A DNA stretch of 64,000 nucleotides from Planctomycetota bacterium (GCA_027001995.1 JALTLO010000017.1:23012-87011); one strand, 5' to 3'. Positions 33,933 to 46,267 are shown, counted from the first letter of the stretch. Notes: generated from the sequence alone by a model not told the origin. Program-made: numbers and translations.

Positions 33933-36068
33933 ATGCAAATCAGGCTCCGCGAGGCAGTTAGGCTTACACTCCTATTCTGCGCATTCCAAGTTGCGCTTCA
34001 GGCTCAACGCCCAGAAATTCTCTATCTACGTTTCAGTGAAACAAGCGGGTCGGTCACAGCAGACCGTGCTTTCCCTGGCCTTCCTGGCGTTTCGCCAACC
34101 ATCCAGAATGGTGCTGCCTTCAACACGAACACAAATAGCACTGGTGGCGTTGTTTTGGGGCCAGCGTGTCTTAAGACAGCAAATACCACGGCGGATCCCT
34201 GCGTCATTAACACTGCCTTCTCCGTCACCGGTGATTGGACGATCGAGTTTTGGATCATTGACACAGAATCGTCTCCTAGCACGACGCGCTACGTCTTTGG
34301 CGACCCAACAATTTCGAACTTCAGGTGCTACCGCGATCCCTCTGGCCCCAACTCCACTCTCACATTGGAGGGAGCTGGCATAAAGAAAGTCGCAATTACC
34401 ACAGCGGTTCAGTTTGCAACTTGGAAGCACGTAGCGTTGGTTCACGACTCCCGGGCCTTGACGATCACGCCTTATGTAGATGGAATCGTACGTCCACCCG
34501 TCACGCAGCCTGCCCCTATCGACTTGGTAGGAAGCGGCACGACTGGTCTGATCATCGGCGGTTTCGGTCCTGGCAATGCTACTTGGCGTGGGCGCATTGA
34601 CGAATTCCGCGTTTGGGACCGAACTCTTTCAAGCTTAGAAATTGGAGCGCAAGCTCTGGGTCATCTCAATCTCGTAACGGACGACATCGCCTGTTCCTCG
34701 ATCACAAGCCCAGTCACCCGCCCGACTAATTGCAAGACACTTTCGGCGTCTGAAACAATCAGCATCGCAATCTCCAACACGGGCACAAATCCCATTGCCG
34801 CTGGAACCGTTATTCCCGTGGAAGTCCGGGTCAACACTGTCTTGGTGCTGTCTGACATGATCACCACGACGCAAATTCTCAACACGGGCGACTCCGAAGT
34901 GCTGAGCATTCCCACGCCAGTGGATCTCTCTATGACCCCCGCCTTGACCATGACGGTCACAACGATGTTCCCTGGAGATGTCGTCAACCTCAATAACACC
35001 GCAACCCGAGTTCTGGTGACTAATGAGGTACCTATCGCAGCGTTTCCTTATGTGGAAGATTTCTCTGGGATCGCTTCAAATCAAAGTATTCTACCACCGG
35101 CAGGCTGGGTCCAAGATCCAGATGACTCTTCTGGTCCCGATTCCGAATGGATTTTCACCAATCAAGCCACACCCACTGTGGGAACTGGCCCCATGGCAGA
35201 CTTTTCAACGGGTCTCACCGGAGGCACAGGCTATTACGCTTATGTGGAAGATGCTGGCAATCACAGTGCCGTCAACTTAGTTACAAGATGTTTTGACTTC
35301 ACCAATACATCCAATCCCAGTCTCAAATTCTGGCTCTATAGTGCAAATGCGAACGGCACCGGAGGAGCCAACGAGAACTTCCTTTCAGTGGATGTTATCA
35401 CCTCACCAGGTGGTGCCATTACTTTGGATGTATTGCCACAAACCGGGCATGTCGGCTCCTTGTGGCAACCCTATGTTGTCAACTTAGGGGCCTTCAATGG
35501 TTCCTTGTGCCGTCTCGTATTCCGAGGCCGGAGCGACGGTGGAGGTGACACACATGACCTTGCCATCGACGACATTACCATCTTCGATTTCGTACCAGGT
35601 ATTGGCCAAGCTCCTCAGCCAGGAGTTGCCGTTATGGACATCAATAACGCCATAAGCCCAGGTTTGGCCGCTGTCTCTTCTGGTGACAAGGGCCCTTACA
35701 CCAGCAATGTGGATGTCGGTGATTTGTTGACGTTTGATTTTTCAGGCGAACCAAATCAAACAATCATCCTTCTCTTGGGCACCAAGAACCCCAATGCCGC
35801 GATCTTCCCTGTTGTTGGTAGCATTGACATTGGTGGCCCCATTGATCCCATGAGTATGCTTCCTACGGGAGTCGTCATCTTCGCAGATGGCTCGGTTCCT
35901 TCGGGCTTCAATCCGTTCTTCAATACTACATCTGCAGGAACCGCCAACGTGTTCTTCACTATGCCCCCTGTGCCACCTGGAATTTTGACGACATTCCAAG
36001 CAGCACTTTTGAACTCAACTCCTTCGGGAGTCGGCATGACGAACGCGATTGAAGTGACTGTCAACTAA
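33933..36068 (+). CDS. Secreted protein: LamG/ConA-like + Ig/CARDB-like + MAM-like + conserved C-terminal domain
   Basis: Signal peptide, LamG motifs (WTIEFW, WKHVALV, GRIDEFRVWDRTLS), MAM-like motifs (TGPMADFST...GYYAYVE, LAIDDI). Confidence 0.8.
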   Translation: MQIRLREAVRLTLLFCAFQVALQAQRPEILYLRFSETSGSVTADRAFPGLPGVSPTIQNGAAFNTNTNSTGGVVLGPACLKTANTTADPCVINTAFSVTGDWTIEFWIIDTESSPSTTRYVFGDPTISNFRCYRDPSGPNSTLTLEGAGIKKVAITTAVQFATWKHVALVHDSRALTITPYVDGIVRPPVTQPAPIDLVGSGTTGLIIGGFGPGNATWRGRIDEFRVWDRTLSSLEIGAQALGHLNLVTDDIACSSITSPVTRPTNCKTLSASETISIAISNTGTNPIAAGTVIPVEVRVNTVLVLSDMITTTQILNTGDSEVLSIPTPVDLSMTPALTMTVTTMFPGDVVNLNNTATRVLVTNEVPIAAFPYVEDFSGIASNQSILPPAGWVQDPDDSSGPDSEWIFTNQATPTVGTGPMADFSTGLTGGTGYYAYVEDAGNHSAVNLVTRCFDFTNTSNPSLKFWLYSANANGTGGANENFLSVDVITSPGGAITLDVLPQTGHVGSLWQPYVVNLGAFNGSLCRLVFRGRSDGGGDTHDLAIDDITIFDFVPGIGQAPQPGVAVMDINNAISPGLAAVSSGDKGPYTSNVDVGDLLTFDFSGEPNQTIILLLGTKNPNAAIFPVVGSIDIGGPIDPMSMLPTGVVIFADGSVPSGFNPFFNTTSAGTANVFFTMPPVPPGILTTFQAALLNSTPSGVGMTNAIEVTVN

Positions 36069-36113
36069 GGATTCGTCACAAGAAACCTTGTTGACCACAA
36101 AGGAGAAAACAAA

Positions 36114-38066
36114 ATGAAATTTAACCAGTCCTTTTTGAGCCTTTTGCTACTCGTTGCATTCATCGCTGTGAGTACAACCCAAGCCGAGGCCCAATCCCCA
36201 TTGACCACAACCTTTGCCGACAATAACGGTTCCACAGGTAACATGTTCGATGTCAAATCGCTCACCGGTGTGATTATCAATGACTTCGACATCAACACGG
36301 CTGTCACCACAGGTGACTTCGAAGTTTGGGCCCTCATCACACCCAATGTTTCCTATGTGAACAACCGCATGAGCAACGCCAACTGGACCCTTCTTGGGAC
36401 AGCAACTGGTGTTGTAGGTGCAGGCGCTGGCAACCCAACACCTTTGGGGCTCAACCTGAACTTCCCTATTTTCCCTGGGGACACCCAAGCATTCTATATA
36501 ACCGGCATCAACGGTGCTAGTGTCAGATACACCACCGGCACCGGTGCCCCTGGCACTCTCTATGCATCCAATACAGACCTGGAATACTATCAGGGTTACG
36601 GCGGAGGTTATTTCAATCTGACGTTTAATCCCCGCATCTGGAATGGCAACATTCATTACACCAACCAAATGCTCTTCTCCGATGACTTGGCGACAACGAA
36701 GATCCTTTCGCCTGTGAATGACCCTCTTAGTTGCGCCGCGGGATCGTCGACAGAAGTGGTCTCATTTGAGTTTCGTAATTTCGGCACAGTGACTGTTCCT
36801 TCAGGCACCGTGATCACCGTGTCCTTCACTGTCGATGGCGGCCCTCCCACCTTCGAGTTTTTCCCTTTAGCTGCCCCCCTTGCATTAGGGGATACAGCCT
36901 CATATACATTCACGGCCACCGCCGACCTCTCAACAATCGGCGCCCATACAGTGACCTGTACGGCCAGTGGTTTGATTGACTTCGACACTTCGAACGACAG
37001 TTTGACCGAAACCATCTACAGTGGTGGTGAAACCCGCATTGTCCTTTTTCCCTATACTGAAGACTTCACGGTCACAGGAGTCAACGGTTCAACCGTAGCT
37101 CCCGCGGGTTATGTCCAAGAGACAACCGAGGCTAGCGGATTTAACTCGGACTGGTTATTTAGAAACGACGCGACCCCTACATTCAACACAGGTCCCTCCG
37201 CGGACAACACCACAGGGGTCGCCGGTTCTGGTGGCTACGCCTACGTCGATGATGACAGCAATCATGCGGCCATCAATCTTCGATCTCCGTGTTTCGATCT
37301 ACTGGGAGCCTTCAACCCAAGTTTGCGATTCTTCATTTATTCCAACAGTGCCACCGGCCCGACACAGCAAAATTTGTTCTCGATTGATGTCATTAGCCAA
37401 CCCAGTGGCCTCATCACGACAGATGTTTTTGGTCCTCAGGGCCACATTGGCCCGAACTGGACCTTCCAAGCTTTGAGCCTCAACGCCTTCGCAGGGCAAA
37501 CGATCCAGTTGGTGTTGAGAGGGGAAACGACCAATAGCGGAAGTAACAACCATGACATCGCCATCGATGATCTTTCTGTGCTTGAGGTCCTATCAACCCC
37601 CGGGCAAGCTCCCCAACCCGGTTTAGCCGTCTTGGATATCAACGACCCAAGGAATATCAATACAGACCCTCTGACCTTTGGTTTTGGTGGTCCCTACTTC
37701 ACCAACGTCACAGAAGGCGACATCTTGCAATTCAAGATGGAAGGTGAAGCACTTCAGCCAATCATCCTGTTCTCAGGGCCCCTCAATCCCAATGTTGCCT
37801 CCTTCCCTAATGTGGGCAGTATTGACATGGGTGGTCCCATTGACCCCGTGAGCGGCTTGCCAACTGCCTTGACTGTCCTAGCGGATGGCACAGTAATAGG
37901 AGGTCTCAACTCCTTCTTTATTACGGCAGCAGACGGAATTGCCAACATTGGTTTCAGTGTTCCTAATTTGCCAATCGGGGTTCTCGGATCATTCCAATGT
38001 GCCTTCTTCACGACTGGAGGAGCTGGGGTTGCCCTCTCCAACGCCGTGCAAGTAACGGTTATGTAG
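36114..38066 (+). CDS. Secreted protein: N-terminal beta domain + Ig/CARDB-like + MAM-like + conserved C-terminal domain (paralog of upstream gene)
   Basis: Signal peptide ending AEA-Q, AAGGAG RBS, TGPSADNTT...GGYAYVD, IAIDDL. The C-terminal 154 aa are colinear with those of 33933..36068. Confidence 0.8.
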   Translation: MKFNQSFLSLLLLVAFIAVSTTQAEAQSPLTTTFADNNGSTGNMFDVKSLTGVIINDFDINTAVTTGDFEVWALITPNVSYVNNRMSNANWTLLGTATGVVGAGAGNPTPLGLNLNFPIFPGDTQAFYITGINGASVRYTTGTGAPGTLYASNTDLEYYQGYGGGYFNLTFNPRIWNGNIHYTNQMLFSDDLATTKILSPVNDPLSCAAGSSTEVVSFEFRNFGTVTVPSGTVITVSFTVDGGPPTFEFFPLAAPLALGDTASYTFTATADLSTIGAHTVTCTASGLIDFDTSNDSLTETIYSGGETRIVLFPYTEDFTVTGVNGSTVAPAGYVQETTEASGFNSDWLFRNDATPTFNTGPSADNTTGVAGSGGYAYVDDDSNHAAINLRSPCFDLLGAFNPSLRFFIYSNSATGPTQQNLFSIDVISQPSGLITTDVFGPQGHIGPNWTFQALSLNAFAGQTIQLVLRGETTNSGSNNHDIAIDDLSVLEVLSTPGQAPQPGLAVLDINDPRNINTDPLTFGFGGPYFTNVTEGDILQFKMEGEALQPIILFSGPLNPNVASFPNVGSIDMGGPIDPVSGLPTALTVLADGTVIGGLNSFFITAADGIANIGFSVPNLPIGVLGSFQCAFFTTGGAGVALSNAVQVTVM

Positions 38067-38306: not shown

Positions 38307-39503
38307 ATGCGTCGACGAATTCCGATTAACCGAGTAGCCAAGATCCCAGATCGAATTCGCATAGAACGCTACCGGAGAGCCCCCGAATTAGGTCCCAAAA
38401 TTCTCTTTTTCTCTGGTGGCTCTGCCTTGCGCGAGGTGTCCAAGAACATCAAGGAATACTCCTTCAATAGCTGTCACTTGATGACTCCCTTTGATTCAGG
38501 TGGCTCATCTGCAAGTCTTCGTGAAGCATTCGCCATGCCAAGCATTGGTGACATTCGCAATCGACTATGCACTCTTGCAGACGACAATTTGTCGGGCAAC
38601 GACGAGATTCGAAAGTTCTTCGGATTTCGATTTCCAGAAGATGGGGACTCCATGGTTTTGCAAGAGCAATTGGCTCAACTTGACTTGGGACGAGACCCCT
38701 TGATGGAATCAATCCCCCAACCGATCCGCAACTTGGTTGGAAGTCATCTGCGTTCGTTCTGCCAAGAAATGCCGAGAAATTTCGACCTAAGCGGCGCGAG
38801 CTTGGGGAACTTGACGCTGGCAGGAGCCTATCTTCAAAGCAATCGCGACATCGATGCTGTCACCTACCTTTACTCTCGCTTGCTTGAAGTAAGAGGATCC
38901 GTTCGAGCAACAGTCAATGCTCATTTAGACCTATGCGTTCGGCTCGAGGATGGCACGTCCTTGGTACGACAACATCTCTTCACTGGAAAAGAAAGCGCGT
39001 CCATCAAGTCCCCCATCGAACGCATATTCTTAACGGATCGTGAGAACCCCCAAGCACCCGTCACATGCGTATTAGAACGGAGCATTGGCGCCGCCATAAC
39101 AGAAGCTGACTTGATCTGCTTTCCCATGGGAAGCTTCTACTCCAGCCTGATAGCAAATCTGTTGCCCAGTGGGGTTGGTAAGTCCATTCGGAGGGCACGA
39201 GGTCCTCGAGTCTACATTCCGAACACCGGTCATGATCCGGAGCAATATGGGATGTCGGTTGAGGCCTGTGTCGCAACACTCATCGCTTACTTGCGTAGAG
39301 ATGCCGGTGAAGACACAGCTACCACGGACTTTTTGGACTTTGTTTTGATCGACTCAGAACGAGGAAAGTACTTAAACGGAATTGACGTGGAGGCCATTGC
39401 GGCTCAAGGAGTTTCAGTGTTGGATCTGGACCTTGTCAACGAGCAAGACCCTCAAAGCTTGGATGGGGCCAAGATCAACGAGACTTTGCTTTCTCTGACT
39501 TAA
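38307..39503 (+). CDS. CofD/YvcK-superfamily protein, GAK-system CofD-like type
   Basis: ILFFSGGSAL, TPFDSGGSS, IGDIRNRL, ASLGNL, PMGSFYSSLIANLLP. The N-terminal RYRRAPELGPKILFFSGG matches my recollection of the GAK-system subfamily. Confidence 0.8.
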   Translation: MRRRIPINRVAKIPDRIRIERYRRAPELGPKILFFSGGSALREVSKNIKEYSFNSCHLMTPFDSGGSSASLREAFAMPSIGDIRNRLCTLADDNLSGNDEIRKFFGFRFPEDGDSMVLQEQLAQLDLGRDPLMESIPQPIRNLVGSHLRSFCQEMPRNFDLSGASLGNLTLAGAYLQSNRDIDAVTYLYSRLLEVRGSVRATVNAHLDLCVRLEDGTSLVRQHLFTGKESASIKSPIERIFLTDRENPQAPVTCVLERSIGAAITEADLICFPMGSFYSSLIANLLPSGVGKSIRRARGPRVYIPNTGHDPEQYGMSVEACVATLIAYLRRDAGEDTATTDFLDFVLIDSERGKYLNGIDVEAIAAQGVSVLDLDLVNEQDPQSLDGAKINETLLSLT

Positions 39504-39526: not shown

Positions 39527-40309
39527 TCAGCGAGGGGTTGGAGCCCCCATGGCACCCAGGAGGATGTCAGCCACTTTGAGACAAGGACCATCCATGGATT
39601 CTTCGATCAGCGAAGGGTCATATTCGATGTCGGCGTTCTCCAGCGCCAAACATCTCTCAAAGAGTCGCACCATCTGGTAGTGAAGAGCTTCATAGACCAA
39701 TGATTGAGGTACAATGGCCTGGTCCGAAAGAGCGACGCCCAAAGGAGCGCGCCCTTGATTGCCTTGACTCAAGAACTTCGTCAACAGGTCTTTGTCGATG
39801 CCGAATTTTCGAATCAAGATCTCACCCAAGCGAAATCCCGGAGGACTGTTAGTGCTGAATGCGCTCATCAGAGTCCCCTTGTCTAAATTGAGGACAAATG
39901 ATTCCTGGGGCCCATCAACCCGCACGCGGCCACTGCGCCTTGTATCAGCTAGAAACTGTAGGATCTCGGCTACTGAGAAAATTCGACCGTCGAAAGTGAA
40001 GGAACCTTCTGCGTCTTCCGCCTGCCCAAGTGTATCAACATCCACCGAACCGAGGACATCTTCGAATGCCTGGGCCAAGATCTTCTGGGTTTTCTCTCTT
40101 TGGGTCGTTTCCTTACCGGCCGCAGCCGATTTCTTCATGTGAGTGACAACCCGACCAAGCTCATTCACGACCGAAACAACCTGATTCAGTTGGCTCAGCT
40201 CTTCAGGCCACCGCGTGAGACGTTTCGTATGGTCATTGACTCGGACGACCAAGCTCGAACACATCCTAGCGATCTTCTCTTGTAGCTCAATGAGGTCCAT
40301 TCCGGACAT
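39527..40309 (-). CDS. DUF4388 (PATAN-like) domain protein with N-terminal coiled coil
   Basis: FSVAEILQFLADTRRSGRVRV, RLGEILIRK, LGVAL. Confidence 0.7.
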   Translation of the reverse strand: MSGMDLIELQEKIARMCSSLVVRVNDHTKRLTRWPEELSQLNQVVSVVNELGRVVTHMKKSAAAGKETTQREKTQKILAQAFEDVLGSVDVDTLGQAEDAEGSFTFDGRIFSVAEILQFLADTRRSGRVRVDGPQESFVLNLDKGTLMSAFSTNSPPGFRLGEILIRKFGIDKDLLTKFLSQGNQGRAPLGVALSDQAIVPQSLVYEALHYQMVRLFERCLALENADIEYDPSLIEESMDGPCLKVADILLGAMGAPTPR

Positions 40310-40660
40310 GGGCGCAAATCCCTTCTTCAATTACGAGGCCAAGATACGTCACTTGGACTCCGTTTCCTTCTCATCGGCAGTTGAACCCCATTTCCCTGAG
40401 TCAAGGAGACATTATTAAAACCTGAGATAGCCCACCGTCCGGACATGGGGTAAGCAATGATGTGAGATCGGGCGTGAGCCCAGCCACACCGCCAATGAAG
40501 CCCAAATTCTCCATCCTTGCATAAAGATGCAGAAATAATCCGGCTTCCATCTGAATTGATTTCTGCAGGTAACCCCGAAGCTTACAAATGAGGGTAGCTT
40601 CCTCCTCACTTTGATGCGAGAATGGCGCTGGAAACACATGGAAGATAGAGATTTACGTCA

Positions 40661-41791
40661 ATGACCGGTACGCGCCCCAACCCTGAAGATCACAAACCCG
40701 CGTCCCGGGCTGGGCAGGCCATCATTTTGATGAGTACCGCCGTCACATCTGCCATTGGCGTCTTGGCATTGTCAGAGCTCCAAGGGGTCATTCGGCCTTT
40801 TATCATTGCCATCTTCTTGTGCTTCTTGATCAAGCCCCTGACCGCCAAGCTGAGTCGACGAGCTGGGATCTTTGGTTACGCTTTTGCTTTTGCCTTTCTC
40901 TTCGGCCTCTTCTCGATCGCCGAAGGTGTGATCTCCAATGATTTGGCGTCCTTTAGCAAGAACAACGAGGGCCATTACCAGAAGAACATCGCTTCATTCC
41001 AGAAGAACATCGATGAGTATCTCGAGGGACATGAAGCATTGGTAGACTTCTTGTCATGGGACAAAATCGACCCCATTGCCGACCGCAACAAAACACCCGG
41101 CGAAAAAATCATTCCCAGGGAACGCTTGGAGGAGCTTGCCAACCCGGCCATGATTTCAAGAATTCTCGGTACCGGAGCCTCTTTCTTCTTCGGTGTCTTT
41201 GGAGAGATGCTTGTTGTCTTGGTCATGATGATGCTCCTTCTCTTAGAGTCAGACAAACTGCCAGCCCGCCTCAAACAAGTCTATGGCGATGAAAAGGCAG
41301 AGGGGATCTTAGATGTATTCCGAGAAGTTGGTCTTAGTGTCACACGTTATGTCTCTCTCAAAGTATGGATTAGTTTGCTCACGGCCATATCAGGTATTGC
41401 CGTCATGTGGGCATTCGGCCTCCACTACGCTGTGACATTTGGAATCATCATTTTCGTTTTCAATTTCGTTCCTTATCTAGGCAGTGTCATCGCCACCCTT
41501 TTTCCTTGTTTCATTGCCCTTCTCCAATTTTCTCCCATCACAGCCCTGTGGCTCGGAGTATCACTCACTATTGCCCAACAAGTAATCGGAAATTTTGTTG
41601 AACCTCGGGTGGTGGGCAAAGGGTTGGCAATCAGCCCCGTCGTTGTGGTTCTTTCTCTGGGTTTCTGGGGTTGGCTTTGGGGAATCGGTGGCATGATTTT
41701 GGCAGTCCCCATCACCGTCACCCTCCGAATCATTCTGGAGCACTTTGAGACAACACGCCAGTTCGCCTTGATGATAGGCGGAGACGAATAA
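40661..41791 (+). CDS. AI-2E family transporter (PerM/YhhT-like)
   Basis: Multi-TM protein with FNFVPYLGS, IGNFVEPRVVG, WGWLWGIGGMILAVP. Confidence 0.9.
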   Translation: MTGTRPNPEDHKPASRAGQAIILMSTAVTSAIGVLALSELQGVIRPFIIAIFLCFLIKPLTAKLSRRAGIFGYAFAFAFLFGLFSIAEGVISNDLASFSKNNEGHYQKNIASFQKNIDEYLEGHEALVDFLSWDKIDPIADRNKTPGEKIIPRERLEELANPAMISRILGTGASFFFGVFGEMLVVLVMMMLLLLESDKLPARLKQVYGDEKAEGILDVFREVGLSVTRYVSLKVWISLLTAISGIAVMWAFGLHYAVTFGIIIFVFNFVPYLGSVIATLFPCFIALLQFSPITALWLGVSLTIAQQVIGNFVEPRVVGKGLAISPVVVVLSLGFWGWLWGIGGMILAVPITVTLRIILEHFETTRQFALMIGGDE

Positions 41792-41842: not shown

Positions 41843-43885
41843 ATGAAGTGCCCCAATTGCGGCGCCAATCTGGATATTGATCAAACCCGGGCCCATTTCG
41901 CAGTCTGTGGATACTGTCAATCTTCCATTGTTGTTGACCAAGAAGCTCTCAAACTCTCAGGCAAGATGGCAGTTCTCCGCCCTCCTCTTGGGCCTTTAGC
42001 ACTTGGATTCACCGGCTCAATTGCCGGACGTGGTTTCGGCGTCCGAGGACGTGTCCGTTACGCCTACGATGCTGGTTTTTGGGACGAGTGGTACGTCGAA
42101 TTTGAAGATGGAGAATCCGGGTGGATCTCACAGGACGAAGACCGATTGGCCTTAGAAGAGCTGTCCCAAGATACGGAACTCTCGGCGACCTATTCCCAAC
42201 TTGAGGTTGGAGACATCCTGACCCTCAAACAGAAGGATTTCGTCGTCCGCGAGCTTGGTGTGGCCACCACTGAAGCTGCGGAAGGTCAATTGCCTTTCCC
42301 GATCATTGCAGGAGAAAAGCACCCTTATATCGACTTGGTTGGCCCAGAAGGTTCATTTGCCACCATTGAAATTGATGGACAAGAAACACGATGCTTCCTG
42401 GGGAAACAACTGGCGCCCAAAGACCTTCGCGTCGACCAAGAGTTTTCTCCAGACCAAAAAGATTCTCTTGAAACAGAGCATAGGGGAAGTGGCGAACAAA
42501 GACAGCGTGTGGTCAAGAAGTCTGGCCGGGAGTTAGCCCTCAACTGTGAATCCTGTGGTGGCTCTCTTGAGCACCCGGAAGGAAACCTGGACTCTCTCAC
42601 CTGCAACCATTGCGGAGCCATCGTTGATCTAAGCCTGGAGCGAGTTCCCTGCCCCAACTGCCCTGCATCCGTAGCGATCCACAATCCAGAAAGGGCCGTT
42701 CAGCTCACCTGCCAGAGTTGTCACGCCAATTTTGAATTAAACCCTTCAGATATCCCTCTCATTGGTCTTGCTGACCCAGACAAGAAACGCCCATCCCCAT
42801 TCATCCCAATCGGATCGGCCTGCCACCTCTTCGGCCAAGATTACCGCATCGTTGGCTACCTAAGAGTCTACGAGCGAGACGAAGGTGTCAAATACTTCAC
42901 CGAAGAATATCTCTTGTCCTCCCATGCCGCTGGATACCGTTGGCTGAGCGAATACGCCGGGCACTTCACCTTCTTGAAAGAACTGGAAGAATTCCCCCAG
43001 GTGAATCCCAAGACCTTGCGCAGAGCCCAAAGCTTCGAATTCAAAGGAAGAAAATGGAAGGTTCTGGAAAAGGGAACTGTGACGATTGATGCTGTAGACG
43101 GTGAATTGCCCTGGGTTGCCACCGTAGGAGACAGAAATCGTTATGCAGACGCCATTCAACCTCCCTACATGTTGTCTGCAGAATGGACAGGCCATGAAGT
43201 CTCATGGTCGCAAGGACAGTATGTTGATCGAGATGAAGTCGCCCAAGCATTCGGCATCAGCATCAAAGATCTGCCACCTGCCCGTGGCGTAGGCGCCTGC
43301 CAGGAATACATAACAACTCCATTCAAGAAGCAATCCCTTGTCGTCATGACCTTCTTTTGCTGCTTAAGCATCCTGCTTCTGGTGTGGTCCACCACCACGG
43401 GCCAAAGACTTAAAGACGAAATCTACTTAGAGCGAGCTCAATACGATCAAGAATTCGTCACCAAGGAATTCGAAATCGCCACCGCACCCTGCCTCGTTGA
43501 GTTTGAATTCCGGTCGAACATAAACAACGAATGGGTCTATCTCGATGTCGCCCTTGTGGACGAAGAGGACCGAGCGGTCATGGATTTCTCAACCCAGATG
43601 TCATACTACCACGGCCCCGATTGGTCGGAGGGCAGCCGAGAAGACACTGTGCCAGTTCGTATCGAGAAGCCAGGACTCTATAAGCTCCTAGTGAAGGGGG
43701 TTGCGGGCTCTGGAGAAACCGCGGACAACCAACTCACGAATCAAAATTACAACGTCACTGTTATTGTTCGAGAAGAAATCATCCTCAGCCGATACTTCGT
43801 GATTCTCATGGTCTTTTGCCTCATATGGATCTTCATCATACTCATTCCCAAACTCACGTTTGAAGGCAAACGTTGGAGCGAATAA
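41843..43885 (+). CDS. DUF4178-domain membrane protein with multiple zinc ribbons
   Basis: Six CxxC pairs (CPNC, CGYC, CESC, CNHC, CPNC, CQSC), two DUF4178-like domains (GRVRY...WDEWY...EGQLPF and GYLRV...EEYLL...DGELPW), two TM helices flanking a C-terminal domain. Confidence 0.8.
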   Translation: MKCPNCGANLDIDQTRAHFAVCGYCQSSIVVDQEALKLSGKMAVLRPPLGPLALGFTGSIAGRGFGVRGRVRYAYDAGFWDEWYVEFEDGESGWISQDEDRLALEELSQDTELSATYSQLEVGDILTLKQKDFVVRELGVATTEAAEGQLPFPIIAGEKHPYIDLVGPEGSFATIEIDGQETRCFLGKQLAPKDLRVDQEFSPDQKDSLETEHRGSGEQRQRVVKKSGRELALNCESCGGSLEHPEGNLDSLTCNHCGAIVDLSLERVPCPNCPASVAIHNPERAVQLTCQSCHANFELNPSDIPLIGLADPDKKRPSPFIPIGSACHLFGQDYRIVGYLRVYERDEGVKYFTEEYLLSSHAAGYRWLSEYAGHFTFLKELEEFPQVNPKTLRRAQSFEFKGRKWKVLEKGTVTIDAVDGELPWVATVGDRNRYADAIQPPYMLSAEWTGHEVSWSQGQYVDRDEVAQAFGISIKDLPPARGVGACQEYITTPFKKQSLVVMTFFCCLSILLLVWSTTTGQRLKDEIYLERAQYDQEFVTKEFEIATAPCLVEFEFRSNINNEWVYLDVALVDEEDRAVMDFSTQMSYYHGPDWSEGSREDTVPVRIEKPGLYKLLVKGVAGSGETADNQLTNQNYNVTVIVREEIILSRYFVILMVFCLIWIFIILIPKLTFEGKRWSE

Positions 43886-44085
43886 TGAACAAGAAAACGT
43901 GGGCACTCGTTGCCCTCATGGTTGGCCTATCATACACAGCAGTCCGAGCATCTGCCTCCGGATTGGGAATCCCAAAACCAGTCAAGAAACCCATCAGCAT
44001 TCGGGAAGGATCTGCCAAGACAAATAGGCGTGGTCGCTATCGCACCCGTTACTTCATGGGCGGCGGACTTCTTCGAGGCAAGTAA
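43885..44085 (+). CDS. Small basic secreted or membrane-anchored peptide ending GGGLLRGK
   Basis: ATG overlaps the upstream stop (TAATG). 66 aa: signal-like segment ending ASA, then a 42-aa tail with 12 K/R. Confidence 0.7.
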   Translation: MNKKTWALVALMVGLSYTAVRASASGLGIPKPVKKPISIREGSAKTNRRGRYRTRYFMGGGLLRGK

Positions 44086-44115
44086 GAAACAGACGGAAAT
44101 AGGAGAGAACATTTC

Positions 44116-44331
44116 ATGAATTGGTCACACGAATTCAACCAGATTTTACTGACAGTCATCTATGCCATTTTGGGCTTTTTGCTCTTAGGTTTCGGAATCA
44201 TTGTGATGGAGAAGGTCGTCCCCTTCTCCATTCGCAAAGAAATCGAAGAAGATCAAAATACGTCATTGGGGATTATCATTGCCGGAGCGATGATCGCCAT
44301 TAGCATCATGATCGCCGCCGTCATTCGCTAA
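44116..44331 (+). CDS. DUF350 family small membrane protein
   Basis: Two TM helices around PFSIRKEIEEDQNTSLGII. AGGAG RBS. Confidence 0.88.
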   Translation: MNWSHEFNQILLTVIYAILGFLLLGFGIIVMEKVVPFSIRKEIEEDQNTSLGIIIAGAMIAISIMIAAVIR

Positions 44332-45902
44332 TGAACGAATTCACAGAAGAGTCGCAACAGACGGCGATGGCCTCGGCAGTTGTCTTGACGTCAGTATTCG
44401 TCATTGCGATCTGCGGCTTAGTGTATGAGCTCATTGCTGGCACGTTGTCTTCTTACCTCTTAGGGGACTCGACGACTCAGTTCTCATTGACGATTGGGCT
44501 ATTTCTGACTTCCATGGGAGTAGGATCCTTCCTGAGTCGTTTCTTGAAGGATCATTTAGTTTTTTGGTTCGTGACCATTGAGCTCCTCATTGGCGTGGTT
44601 GGGGGATTCAGCGCCCTCGCCGGATTCGCCTCTTTCGCGTTTACAGACCTCTATGTTCCAGTTCTCATTGCCCATGTTTTTATCATTGGCGCTCTGGTTG
44701 GCTTAGAGATACCCCTTGTCATCCGACTGTTAGAAGAAGTGCGGTCATTGCGGGTCACGGTGGCCAATGTCTTCTCCGTCGACTATGCCGGAGCTCTGGT
44801 CGCTTCCATTGTCTTCCCATTCTTCCTCTTACCTCAGTTGGGCTTAGTACGATCTTCCCTGGTCGTCGGCATTACCAACGTCTTGGTAGCGGCCATCCTC
44901 CTACACAACCTCAAAAGGCAAATGAGAGGTCGGCAAAAAGGTCTGACGATTGCCGTCATCATTTCACTTGTCACACTCATCACTGCAACCGCCGTGGCCG
45001 GAAGCATGGTGAAAGAATTCGAGAACCGTGTCTATCAAGATGAGGTGATCTTCTCCTCAGCCAGTCGCTATCAACAAGTCGTCTTAACTCGTTGGAGAAA
45101 TGACACACGCCTCTATCTGAACGGACATCTCCAATTCTCGAGCGTCGATGAATATCGTTATCACGAAGCTTTGGCCATCCCCGCCCTCTCATCCGCAGAA
45201 AAGCGTGATGAAGTTCTCATCCTCGGTGGTGGTGACGGTCTACTCGCTCGACAAGTGCTGAAATTTGGGGATGTAAGAAGAATCACCTTGGTGGACTTGG
45301 ACCCCATGGTCACCGACCTGTTCTCCAACCGCGTGGTGCTCAGGGAACTCAACGACAACTCTCTTCGTTCTGAGAAAATGCGAATCCAAAACACCGATGC
45401 CATGGCCTTCTTAAGTGAAACCAACGAGGTTTTCGACGTTATCTTGATCGATTTGCCTGATCCATCGGAGAGCGCCCTCTCGAAACTCTACTCCGAAGCT
45501 TTCTATCGCCTTTGTTTGAGTCATCTTGCAGAAAATGGGACTCTTGCTACCCAAGCCACCAGCCCCTTCAGGTCCCGAGAAGCCTTCTGGTGTATCAACA
45601 AGACTCTCCAGTCTGTTCGGACCACAACAGGAGGAGGGATGAGCGAACGATTCTACTCAAGGCCTTACCATGCTTATATTCCAACGTTCGGAACTTGGGG
45701 TTTCGTCATGGCCTCCCGGCGCCCCATCGATGTCGATAGCATCAAGATATCGGTGAAAACCAACTTCCTCACCACTGAAACCTTGAGCAGCCTATTCAAC
45801 TTCCCGAAGGACATGGAACCCGTGCCAACGAAGATCAATCGCCTCAATGACCCCGTCTTATCTCAGCTCTACCGCAGCGGTTACCACAAGTATTTGGACT
45901 AA
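44331..45902 (+). CDS. speE: Membrane-anchored polyamine aminopropyltransferase (spermidine synthase-like)
   Basis: About 7 N-terminal TM helices (CGLVYEL, GLEIPL, DYAGAL), then LYLNGHLQFSSVDEYRYHE, LILGGGDG, VDLDP, IDLPDP. TAATG overlap with DUF350. Confidence 0.9.
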   Translation: MNEFTEESQQTAMASAVVLTSVFVIAICGLVYELIAGTLSSYLLGDSTTQFSLTIGLFLTSMGVGSFLSRFLKDHLVFWFVTIELLIGVVGGFSALAGFASFAFTDLYVPVLIAHVFIIGALVGLEIPLVIRLLEEVRSLRVTVANVFSVDYAGALVASIVFPFFLLPQLGLVRSSLVVGITNVLVAAILLHNLKRQMRGRQKGLTIAVIISLVTLITATAVAGSMVKEFENRVYQDEVIFSSASRYQQVVLTRWRNDTRLYLNGHLQFSSVDEYRYHEALAIPALSSAEKRDEVLILGGGDGLLARQVLKFGDVRRITLVDLDPMVTDLFSNRVVLRELNDNSLRSEKMRIQNTDAMAFLSETNEVFDVILIDLPDPSESALSKLYSEAFYRLCLSHLAENGTLATQATSPFRSREAFWCINKTLQSVRTTTGGGMSERFYSRPYHAYIPTFGTWGFVMASRRPIDVDSIKISVKTNFLTTETLSSLFNFPKDMEPVPTKINRLNDPVLSQLYRSGYHKYLD

Positions 45903-45916
45903 ACGCAAACCATACA

Positions 45917-46267
45917 ATGACTCAATCAATCGGAACCCATCTCATCGCTGACATCAATGAAGTCAGCCCAAAGCTCCTCGGGGATCGGGCTACTGTGGCG
46001 AGCATGTTAGTGAAGGCACTTAAATCCGAGCAATTCACGATCCTCAACTCCGTCGGCCATGACTTTCCCGGGGGCGGATTCACCACCCTCATTTTGCTCT
46101 CGGAATCCCACGCTTCTCTCCACAGCTACCCAGAATTGGGATACCTGGCGTTCGACCTCTTCAGTTGCGGTCAAAAAAGCCCTGAGAAGGTCTTGAACAG
46201 TCTCATGAAGGATCTGGGCACCAATTCCGCTGAGATCAACAAAGTCAAACGGGACGCCAAGACCTGA
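45917..46267 (+). CDS. speD: S-adenosylmethionine decarboxylase proenzyme (short class)
   Basis: GTHLIAD, LLSESHASLHSYPE (E|S autocleavage site), DLFSCG. Confidence 0.9.
   Translation: MTQSIGTHLIADINEVSPKLLGDRATVASMLVKALKSEQFTILNSVGHDFPGGGFTTLILLSESHASLHSYPELGYLAFDLFSCGQKSPEKVLNSLMKDLGTNSAEINKVKRDAKT

Follow-up and report, generated by a model that had tools for sequence, protein, structure and literature searches.

In the 64,000-nucleotide stretch of Planctomycetota DNA analysed here (the window; GCA_027001995.1, JALTLO010000017.1:23012-87011), a five-gene operon encodes a DUF4178 protein, a small basic peptide, a DUF350 protein, a membrane-fused aminopropyltransferase and the S-adenosylmethionine (SAM) decarboxylase SpeD (Table 1). 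From sequence comparison and structure models we propose, with a probability of roughly 60%, that this operon aminopropylates the C-terminal lysine of its own membrane-anchored peptide outside the cytoplasm. The view that the terminal lysine is the acceptor is held with the same degree of confidence. The genes lie on one strand, overlap as TAATG at 43885 and at 44331, and are elsewhere separated by 30 nt (44086-44115) and 14 nt (45903-45916), in agreement with the first-pass annotation of this DNA. That annotation had suggested a membrane-bound acceptor other than putrescine. The suggestion fits the evidence and is narrowed here to the peptide's C-terminal lysine on the outer face, although the general idea is not new (available text of PMC11237479 and PMC12803844).

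The 66-residue peptide has an isoelectric point of 11.8, with 15 Lys and Arg residues vs one Asp or Glu. It consists of a basic N-terminus, a hydrophobic segment at about residues 6-21, which probably acts as an anchor or a signal, a basic linker and a Gly-rich tail that ends in GGGLLRGK-stop. Homologues of the peptide occupy the same operon position in other genomes, and in the ESM Atlas it matched unnamed clusters only. The tail was first noticed by reading 80 related GTDB loci, which constitute the discovery set. We then applied a tail rule, under which a same-strand open reading frame (ORF) of at least 35 aa must end in GK or HK and lie between 4.5 kb before and 3.5 kb after the enzyme gene. 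The rule held in 57 of the 58 discovery loci with a nearby DUF350 gene and in 5 of the 22 without one; the single DUF350-bearing locus that failed has only 225 bp of upstream DNA. In the antisense control, the numbers were 7/58 and 3/22, respectively, and the genome background of GK- or HK-ended ORFs was 217/51,254.

Since the tail rule came from the discovery set, it was checked in two further ways. When lysine was not named beforehand, GK was the commonest terminal dipeptide, present in 49 of the 58 loci and followed by RR in 23, and 45 of 79 ORFs with at least four Gly before the last residue ended in Lys. In three held-out samples, whose phyla were inferred or were the window's own, the rule held in 37 of 40 DUF350-bearing loci. 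The Pseudomonadota sample (20 of 21 matching genomes; G257 was omitted as already in the discovery set) gave 12/14, with one of the two misses ending in RVK and the other at a contig edge. The window's own phylum (23 loci, read with flanks of 1.5 kb) gave 18/19, and the Bacteroidota sample (9 loci; G003 omitted) gave 7/7. We give no P value because related genomes are not independent. Across carriers the terminal Lys is encoded by AAA in 36 cases and AAG in 26, and all three stop codons are in use.

The proteins that carry the tail are not homologous to one another. They include micro-peptides of 43-102 aa, lipoproteins (one of the DUF4247 family), Zn-ribbon proteins, and fusions of DUF4178 with transmembrane (TM) helices, the last in Clostridia and at locus L245. 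Hydrophobic segments were counted, by our own threshold, in 75 carriers, after eight discovery-set ORFs that looked like chance matches had been dropped; a single segment is present in 62, none in 13 (including the window's peptide) and more than one in 0. The tail always follows the hydrophobic segment. DUF4247 proteins are predicted to be N-terminally anchored or exported in the available text of PMC3726780 and PMC8854784. These results suggest that the tail is exported, flexible and located outside the membrane.

Some loci depart from this arrangement. A set of 25 genomes was chosen mostly because the enzyme gene has no same-strand DUF350 beside it (30 of 39 matches were read). DUF350 occurred somewhere in 23 of these genomes, and a GK or HK tail stood beside it in 14, including all 10 myxobacterial genomes. 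In the myxobacterial split operons (L041, L042, L279-L288; 10 genomes), DUF350 and a peptide ending in FMGGK lie away from the enzyme gene, and the enzyme gene has a SnoaL-like neighbour in the two of these loci that were scanned. At L244 and L246 (genomes G335 and G426), a full-length DUF350 gene on the other strand is arranged head to head with the enzyme gene, and in G335 an HK-ended ORF adjoins the enzyme gene, also on the opposite strand. Locus L082 carries a tandem of two GK-ended peptides and two DUF4178 genes upstream of a single enzyme gene. A flavin amine oxidase accompanies all nine HK-type discovery loci (L044, L050, L065, L073, L075, L078 and L083-L085) vs 10 of the 51 GK-type loci, and many of these oxidases have a twin-arginine-like N-terminus. 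By acting on an aminopropyl cap, such an oxidase could remove it or turn it into an aldehyde. No gene of this kind was found in the window's genome.

DUF350 accompanies the enzyme closely. A same-strand DUF350 gene lies near the enzyme gene in 58 of the 80 discovery loci and in 14/20, 19/23 and 7/9 of the Pseudomonadota, window's-phylum and Bacteroidota loci, respectively. This co-occurrence is far above chance. The 71-aa DUF350 protein of the window, encoded by a single-copy gene in its genome, is half-size, with two TM helices, and equals one repeat of E. coli YjfL; a profile built from the DUF350 proteins of related loci matched both halves of YjfL. The 680-aa DUF4178 protein contains two repeats of a Cys-pair, zinc-ribbon-like segment followed by DUF4178, the zinc-ribbon matches being weak. 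By hydropathy it has TM helices at 499-517 and 651-669, and the domain of about 130 aa between them, which has no family name, probably lies outside the membrane. Its C-terminal part matched only unnamed or DUF4178-labelled clusters in the ESM Atlas. The protein may serve as a scaffold or sensor, and DUF350 may read or present the tail.

The 523-aa enzyme matched NF002956/PRK03612 with 617.9 bits (cut-off 472) over residues 5-521 and scored too low for the models of soluble SpeE (TIGR00417, 122.4 bits vs a cut-off of 249.55; PRK00811, 149.2 vs 260). The AlphaFold2 (AF2) model of the whole enzyme had a mean predicted local distance difference test score (pLDDT) of 92.2. Its catalytic domain aligned with the Thermus thermophilus aminopropyltransferase at Z 35, and the classical soluble aminopropyltransferases as a group share the fold at Z 29-35. 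Alignment, including hhalign to E. coli SpeE, showed that Q248, Q268, Y277, H278, D302, D322, D356, D374 and D377 are kept. Thus, the donor-site acid D302 of GGGDG (299-303), the catalytic Asp D374 of the DxxD within IDLPDP (373-378) and the first active-site Tyr, Y277, are intact; both motifs stand as first described.

The acceptor side differs from that of the classical enzymes. The second active-site Tyr (human Tyr241) is replaced by Phe453, a Phe conserved in at least 90% of 56 sequences, and R276 is invariant in homologues and is an addition relative to classical enzymes. In the AF2 model, residues 202-234 form one helix and the first strand starts at 238. Model residue 235 aligned with residue 28 of MtTSPS and 238 with 47, so that about 19 MtTSPS residues map onto three, which is suggestive of the absence of classical enzymes' N-terminal beta-hairpin. 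In plant spermidine synthase it is this hairpin that walls off the bottom of the polyamine tunnel (available text of PMC6514230). Because the hairpin that floors it appears to be missing from the model, the putrescine tunnel is predicted to be open-ended. Complex prediction for the enzyme with the 66-aa peptide, a check proposed in the first-pass annotation, gave 0.26 against a mark of 0.32 (runs of 0.01, 0.33 and 0.26) and is used neither for nor against binding.

About seven TM helices had been suggested for the enzyme. The AF2 models contain seven, and hydropathy alone gives six. The model of the membrane part alone had a mean pLDDT of 95.5. In VIA-align, its top-ranking matches were carriers of the major facilitator superfamily (MFS), and it superposed on one half of SLC37A4 with a Z of 18.5 and a root-mean-square deviation of 2.4 over 175 residues; Foldseek gave no match for the membrane part at E 0.001 and missed the MFS fold. 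Across 56 homologues the mean number of Lys plus Arg per loop was 0.18, 2.30, 0.27, 3.27, 0.23 and 3.64. This alternation places loops 2-3, 4-5 and 6-7 inside, so that TM7 leads outside. The termini of MFS halves are cytoplasmic, in agreement with the loop charges. The twin-arginine-like N-termini of many amine oxidases in sister operons point the same way. The catalytic domain is thus very probably located outside the cytoplasmic membrane, as judged from these models.

Since the donor would be made in the cytoplasm and used outside, decarboxylated SAM would have to cross the membrane. The chain contains one six-helix bundle and TM7, not the two bundles (12 TM helices) of a complete MFS protein, and a full carrier would therefore need a dimer. 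Most aminopropyltransferases are dimers (available text of PMC6514230), and a dimer of the enzyme could complete a 6+6 carrier. The residues conserved within the membrane are E33, E84, E126, D151, Y32, Y152 and N183, and the acids E33, E84, E126 and D151 would suit a cationic cargo. On the basis of the fold model, we slightly favour export of decarboxylated SAM by a dimer of MFS halves.

SpeD exceeded the cut-off of TIGR03330, the S-adenosylmethionine decarboxylase (AdoMetDC) model (94.3 vs 75.65 bits), and has the features of a class 1b pyruvoyl enzyme, with the expected cleavage motif SESH at 62-65. Its gene adjoins the transferase gene and is the only homologue in the genome. Some SpeD homologues, including ones from Planctomycetota, decarboxylate ornithine or arginine; the homologues concerned were chosen from genomes with no partner enzyme or with two SpeD homologues (available text of PMC10407285). 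The SpeD of the window is probably a cytoplasmic maker of decarboxylated SAM. The first-pass annotation had noted that no ornithine or arginine decarboxylase or agmatinase lies nearby. The operon's contig indeed has no ornithine/arginine decarboxylase or ureohydrolase match, but this is no argument about the substrate because other contigs of the genome encode a SpeA-type arginine decarboxylase and two ureohydrolase-family genes. One gene of the deoxyhypusine-synthase family also lies on another contig. Spermidine-synthase domains gave one strong match in the genome, the operon enzyme, and six weak ones. Five further long ORFs with weak matches (open frames of 533-981 aa; L002 on C177, L004 on C182, L005 on C174 and one each on C76 and C177) are possibly a second class of membrane fusion.

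DUF350 also occurs in many operons of a different enzyme. In E. coli yjfL (DUF350)-yjfM-yjfC and ygiB-ygiC, RefSeq annotates YjfC and YgiC as peptide-spermidine ligases, whose natural substrate is not known according to the available text of PMC11762307. YjfM and YgiB both end in GG. We compared partner tails at 26 single-domain ligase loci, namely L168 and 25 loci from a sample of 30 loci for 36 matches. The matches to PF03738 around G001 were for the most part distant ATP-grasp proteins, and of the 25 loci from that search L168 alone entered the comparison; 80 metagenome YjfC loci were left unused because they are 79-100% identical to the E. coli protein. A GG-ended ORF was present in 20/26, the partner ended in GS or SS in 4/26, and none was found in 2/26. 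The sole GK-ended ORF at these loci is a 43-aa frame inside the ligase gene. Bacillota ligase loci ended in GG in 5/9 and in Ser in 4/9, giving GG in 25 of 35 ligase loci pooled, and none of the partner tails identified in ligase operons ends in Lys. At bifunctional GspS loci, a GG end was present in 1/5. In the same Pseudomonadota sample and with equal flanks, transferase loci gave GK or HK in 13/21 and GG in 1/21. The window's operon is not of the ligase type, as its enzyme is a transferase rather than an ATP-grasp protein and its partner ends in GK rather than GG.

A transferase needs an amine and a ligase needs a carboxylate, and the tail end offers an amine (Lys) or a bare carboxylate (GG) accordingly. 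Written out chemically, Gly-Lys(epsilon-aminopropyl) corresponds to Gly-NH-C5-NH-C3-NH2 bearing a carboxylate, a structure near to that of N8-glycyl-spermidine (Gly-NH-C4-NH-C3-NH2). We tentatively suggest, at somewhat less than even odds, that two non-homologous routes lead to one envelope signal, a polyamine-capped tail end, with DUF350 as the common reader. In one route GK tails would be modified by a lysine aminopropyltransferase that works outside the cytoplasm and receives decarboxylated SAM through a half-MFS dimer of its own; in the other an ATP-grasp ligase would add spermidine to GG tails. Three observations weigh against such convergence. Eight of the 35 ligase partners end in Ser and the tails of two were not found. 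The ligase depends on ATP and presumably sits in the cytoplasm, while its partner's tail is presumably exported. Mutual exclusion of ligase and transferase among genomes was also considered and is not significant (one shared genome vs 2.6 expected, P 0.23).

The operon may operate as follows. SpeD, whose family is evident, would produce decarboxylated SAM in the cytoplasm. Two enzyme copies would pair their MFS halves and carry this cation across the membrane to the catalytic domain, which is predicted from the loop charges and the MFS-half fold to lie outside, after TM7. The flexible Gly-rich tail would then thread its Lys side chain into the putrescine tunnel, where D374 may activate the epsilon-amine of the terminal Lys. 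The product would be Gly-Lys(epsilon-aminopropyl), a near-mimic of the Gly-spermidine cap that YjfC or YgiC would add to GG-ended partners. DUF350 would read or present the capped tail, and DUF4178 is, more speculatively, a cytoplasmic partner in envelope upkeep.

Several observations count against lysine-tail aminopropylation. SpeD lies near the enzyme in only 21 of the 58 DUF350-bearing discovery loci. The match at L253 in the Pseudomonadota (39 aa) is probably due to chance, and two Planctomycetota tails resemble those of discovery loci L011 and L014 and hence are not independent. Within 1.5 kb of DUF350, a tail was not found in G426, G406, G471, G472, G473 and G477; the DUF350 of G257 is of the ligase type with a GG tail, and G474 and G476 gave no DUF350 match. 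Helix limits for the loop charges were set by hand, and lipoboxes and signal peptides were judged by eye. D377 is invariant, as a diamine substrate would need. Finally, docking or linkage to the cell wall, rather than acceptance of the aminopropyl group, could be the role of the conserved terminal Lys.

The docking role would fit an enzyme that works outside on a small molecule or lipid amine, for instance lysine, a diamine that has been exported or the head group of an amino-lipid. The Lys tail would then be a ligand that docks on or activates the enzyme or DUF350. The counterpart of D377, human Asp176, binds the far amine of putrescine (available text of PMC13619349). The SpeA and ureohydrolase-family genes mean that diamines are available, and the exported flavin amine oxidase of sister operons could act on free polyamine. 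We nevertheless consider this explanation unlikely, as it does not account for the switch from Lys to Gly or Ser exactly with the switch from transferase to ligase, and related bacterial fusions made no spermidine or spermine (available text of PMC12803844). That finding also bears on the database name, by which the operon would be an ordinary SpeD and SpeE spermidine pathway that is merely membrane-tethered. The operon does hold the genome's only SpeD and only strong spermidine-synthase-domain match, putrescine precursor genes are encoded elsewhere, and a mycobacterial homologue is called "spermidine synthase" in passing in the available text of PMC11841054. An ordinary pathway would leave the tail and DUF350 unexplained, and it is at odds with the predicted outside location of the catalytic domain and with the scores below the soluble SpeE cut-offs. 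The deoxyhypusine-synthase family can supply homospermidine, so the genome may have another source of polyamine. We therefore regard it as hardly probable at all.

A linking role is known for the terminal Lys of Braun's lipoprotein, which is a cell-wall anchor. Exported, flexible, Lys-terminal tails on membrane-anchored carriers, as inferred here, could likewise be joined to peptidoglycan, directly or after lengthening by an aminopropyl group, with DUF350 not a reader. This is quite improbable, as no transpeptidase was seen among the five genes or the sister-locus neighbours scanned, and the GG tails of ligase operons would be unaccounted for; if aminopropylation comes first, this reading can coexist with the modification of the lysine tail proposed above. 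Another operon protein could be the acceptor, for example DUF350 or, through an outer loop, the DUF4178 protein, since both accompany the enzyme as faithfully as the tail does in the discovery loci. Alternatively, the membrane half, whose export of decarboxylated SAM is a proposal, could import instead, for example in methylthioadenosine recovery. We hold these possibilities to be very improbable. The DUF350 alignment contains no Lys position with conservation of 60% or more, and the DUF4178 fusions that carry the tail in several lineages retain its terminal Lys.

The features of the operon and its flank are listed in Table 1. The contig holding the window is C17, from a 5.2-Mb genome of 92% completeness, and the closest related locus is from Planctomycetota and is 71% identical. 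Promoter and terminator scans of the locus gave results at chance level. Genes for an AI-2E transporter, a cyclophilin and ychF were considered as operon parts and rejected, because among the matches listed similar flanks, judged as similar-sized neighbours with similar C-termini, occur only in the closest relative, L006.

Table 1. Operon genes, parts of their products and upstream neighbours, in window positions
Feature	Position	Strand	Length	Remarks
DUF4178 gene	41843-43885	+	680 aa	Pfam DUF4178 in two stretches, E 6e-34
Small basic peptide gene	43885-44085	+	66 aa	No Pfam or NCBIfam family
Codon of terminal Lys66	44080..44082	+		Proposed aminopropylation site
DUF350 gene	44116-44331	+	71 aa	PF03994, E 3e-13, one repeat only
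Membrane aminopropyltransferase gene	44331-45902	+	523 aa	NF002956/PRK03612
MFS-like membrane part	44358..45005	+		Six-helix bundle, about residues 10-201, and TM7, 205-225
Catalytic domain, spermidine-synthase fold	45036..45899	+		Residues 236-523
SpeD gene	45917-46267	+	116 aa	TIGR03330 AdoMetDC
AI-2E family transporter	40661-41791	+		Stops 51 nt upstream of the operon; among the matches listed, similar neighbour only in L006
DUF4388 protein	39527-40330	-		Weak MshE-type c-di-GMP-binding motif
GAK-system CofD-like protein	38307-39503	+		TIGR04357, 488 bits vs cut-off 340
Two large ORFs	33933-38066	+	711 and 650 aa	Signal-like N-termini; C-terminal halves alike

If the proposal is correct, the operon would represent a new type of bacterial protein modification, one placed on the cell surface, and a SAM-derived group would be transferred outside the cytoplasm by means of a built-in carrier. 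The enzyme family is widespread, being present in 24/201, 21/201 and 10/201 genomes of the three phylum samples. Although its members carry the annotation polyamine synthase, related fusions reportedly make no spermidine. The tail rule singles out one residue per system, as the candidate acceptor of the transferase and as the candidate natural substrate of YgiC and YjfC.

Among known systems, the nearest are clusters of AdoMetDC, an MFS/SpdSyn-like fusion and DUF350, reportedly described by Li, Kurihara, Kim, Liang and Michael in 2019 (Biochem J 476:2579). To our knowledge, no acceptor was named for these clusters. The window's operon shares with them a class 1b SpeD, DUF350 and a spermidine-synthase-like enzyme fused to a membrane part. 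To these features the present analysis adds the Lys-ended tail, a catalytic domain predicted to face outward and the idea of a half-MFS dimer. The negative experiments on membrane-protein/aminopropyltransferase-like fusions in PMC12803844 are given there, in the available text, with a citation of Li et al. 2019. The classical soluble aminopropyltransferases (E. coli SpeE, T. thermophilus 1uir and MtTSPS 6bq2) share the fold and the donor-site and catalytic residues. The window's enzyme differs from them in being membrane-fused and predicted to be extracytoplasmic, with the hairpin apparently absent, Phe in place of the second Tyr and an invariant R276. E. coli yjfL-yjfM-yjfC and ygiB-ygiC have in common with the operon DUF350 (yjf only), a basic Gly-rich partner tail and a polyamine enzyme, and differ in having an ATP-grasp ligase for the transferase and a GG end for GK.

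The operon type itself, a PRK03612 enzyme with DUF350, DUF4178 and SpeD, is described in the available text of PMC11237479 (mSystems 2024), which mentions "aminopropylation of other substrates" and proposes a link of polyamines or aminopropylation to the envelope. The operons shown there (Shewanella SO_3765; the Rv2597 region with DUF4247 and DUF2617; band-7) have in common with the window's copy the 7TM enzyme, DUF350 (YjfL family), DUF4178 and an exported partner, all in one operon. In its supplement the partner tail is labelled only "Low-comp" and "lysine" occurs 0 times. No paper stating a terminal-Lys acceptor was found by title and start of abstract, in a search whose coverage leaves out most subscription journals. 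Compared with those operons, the window's copy lacks genes for PspA, CesT/Tir, band-7, DUF2617 and an oxidase; its partner is a 66-aa peptide, its DUF350 is half-size and its DUF4178 is doubled with zinc ribbons. A second group in the available text of PMC11237479 consists of PspA-linked envelope-stress operons. The first-pass annotation had raised a stress system, and for this copy the idea is not borne out, as PspA is not among the five genes and the 92%-complete genome has no PF04012 match. The operon is a further case of a known type, in minimal form. Because it has its own SpeD and neither PspA nor an oxidase, the five-gene copy is a minimal set for reconstitution.

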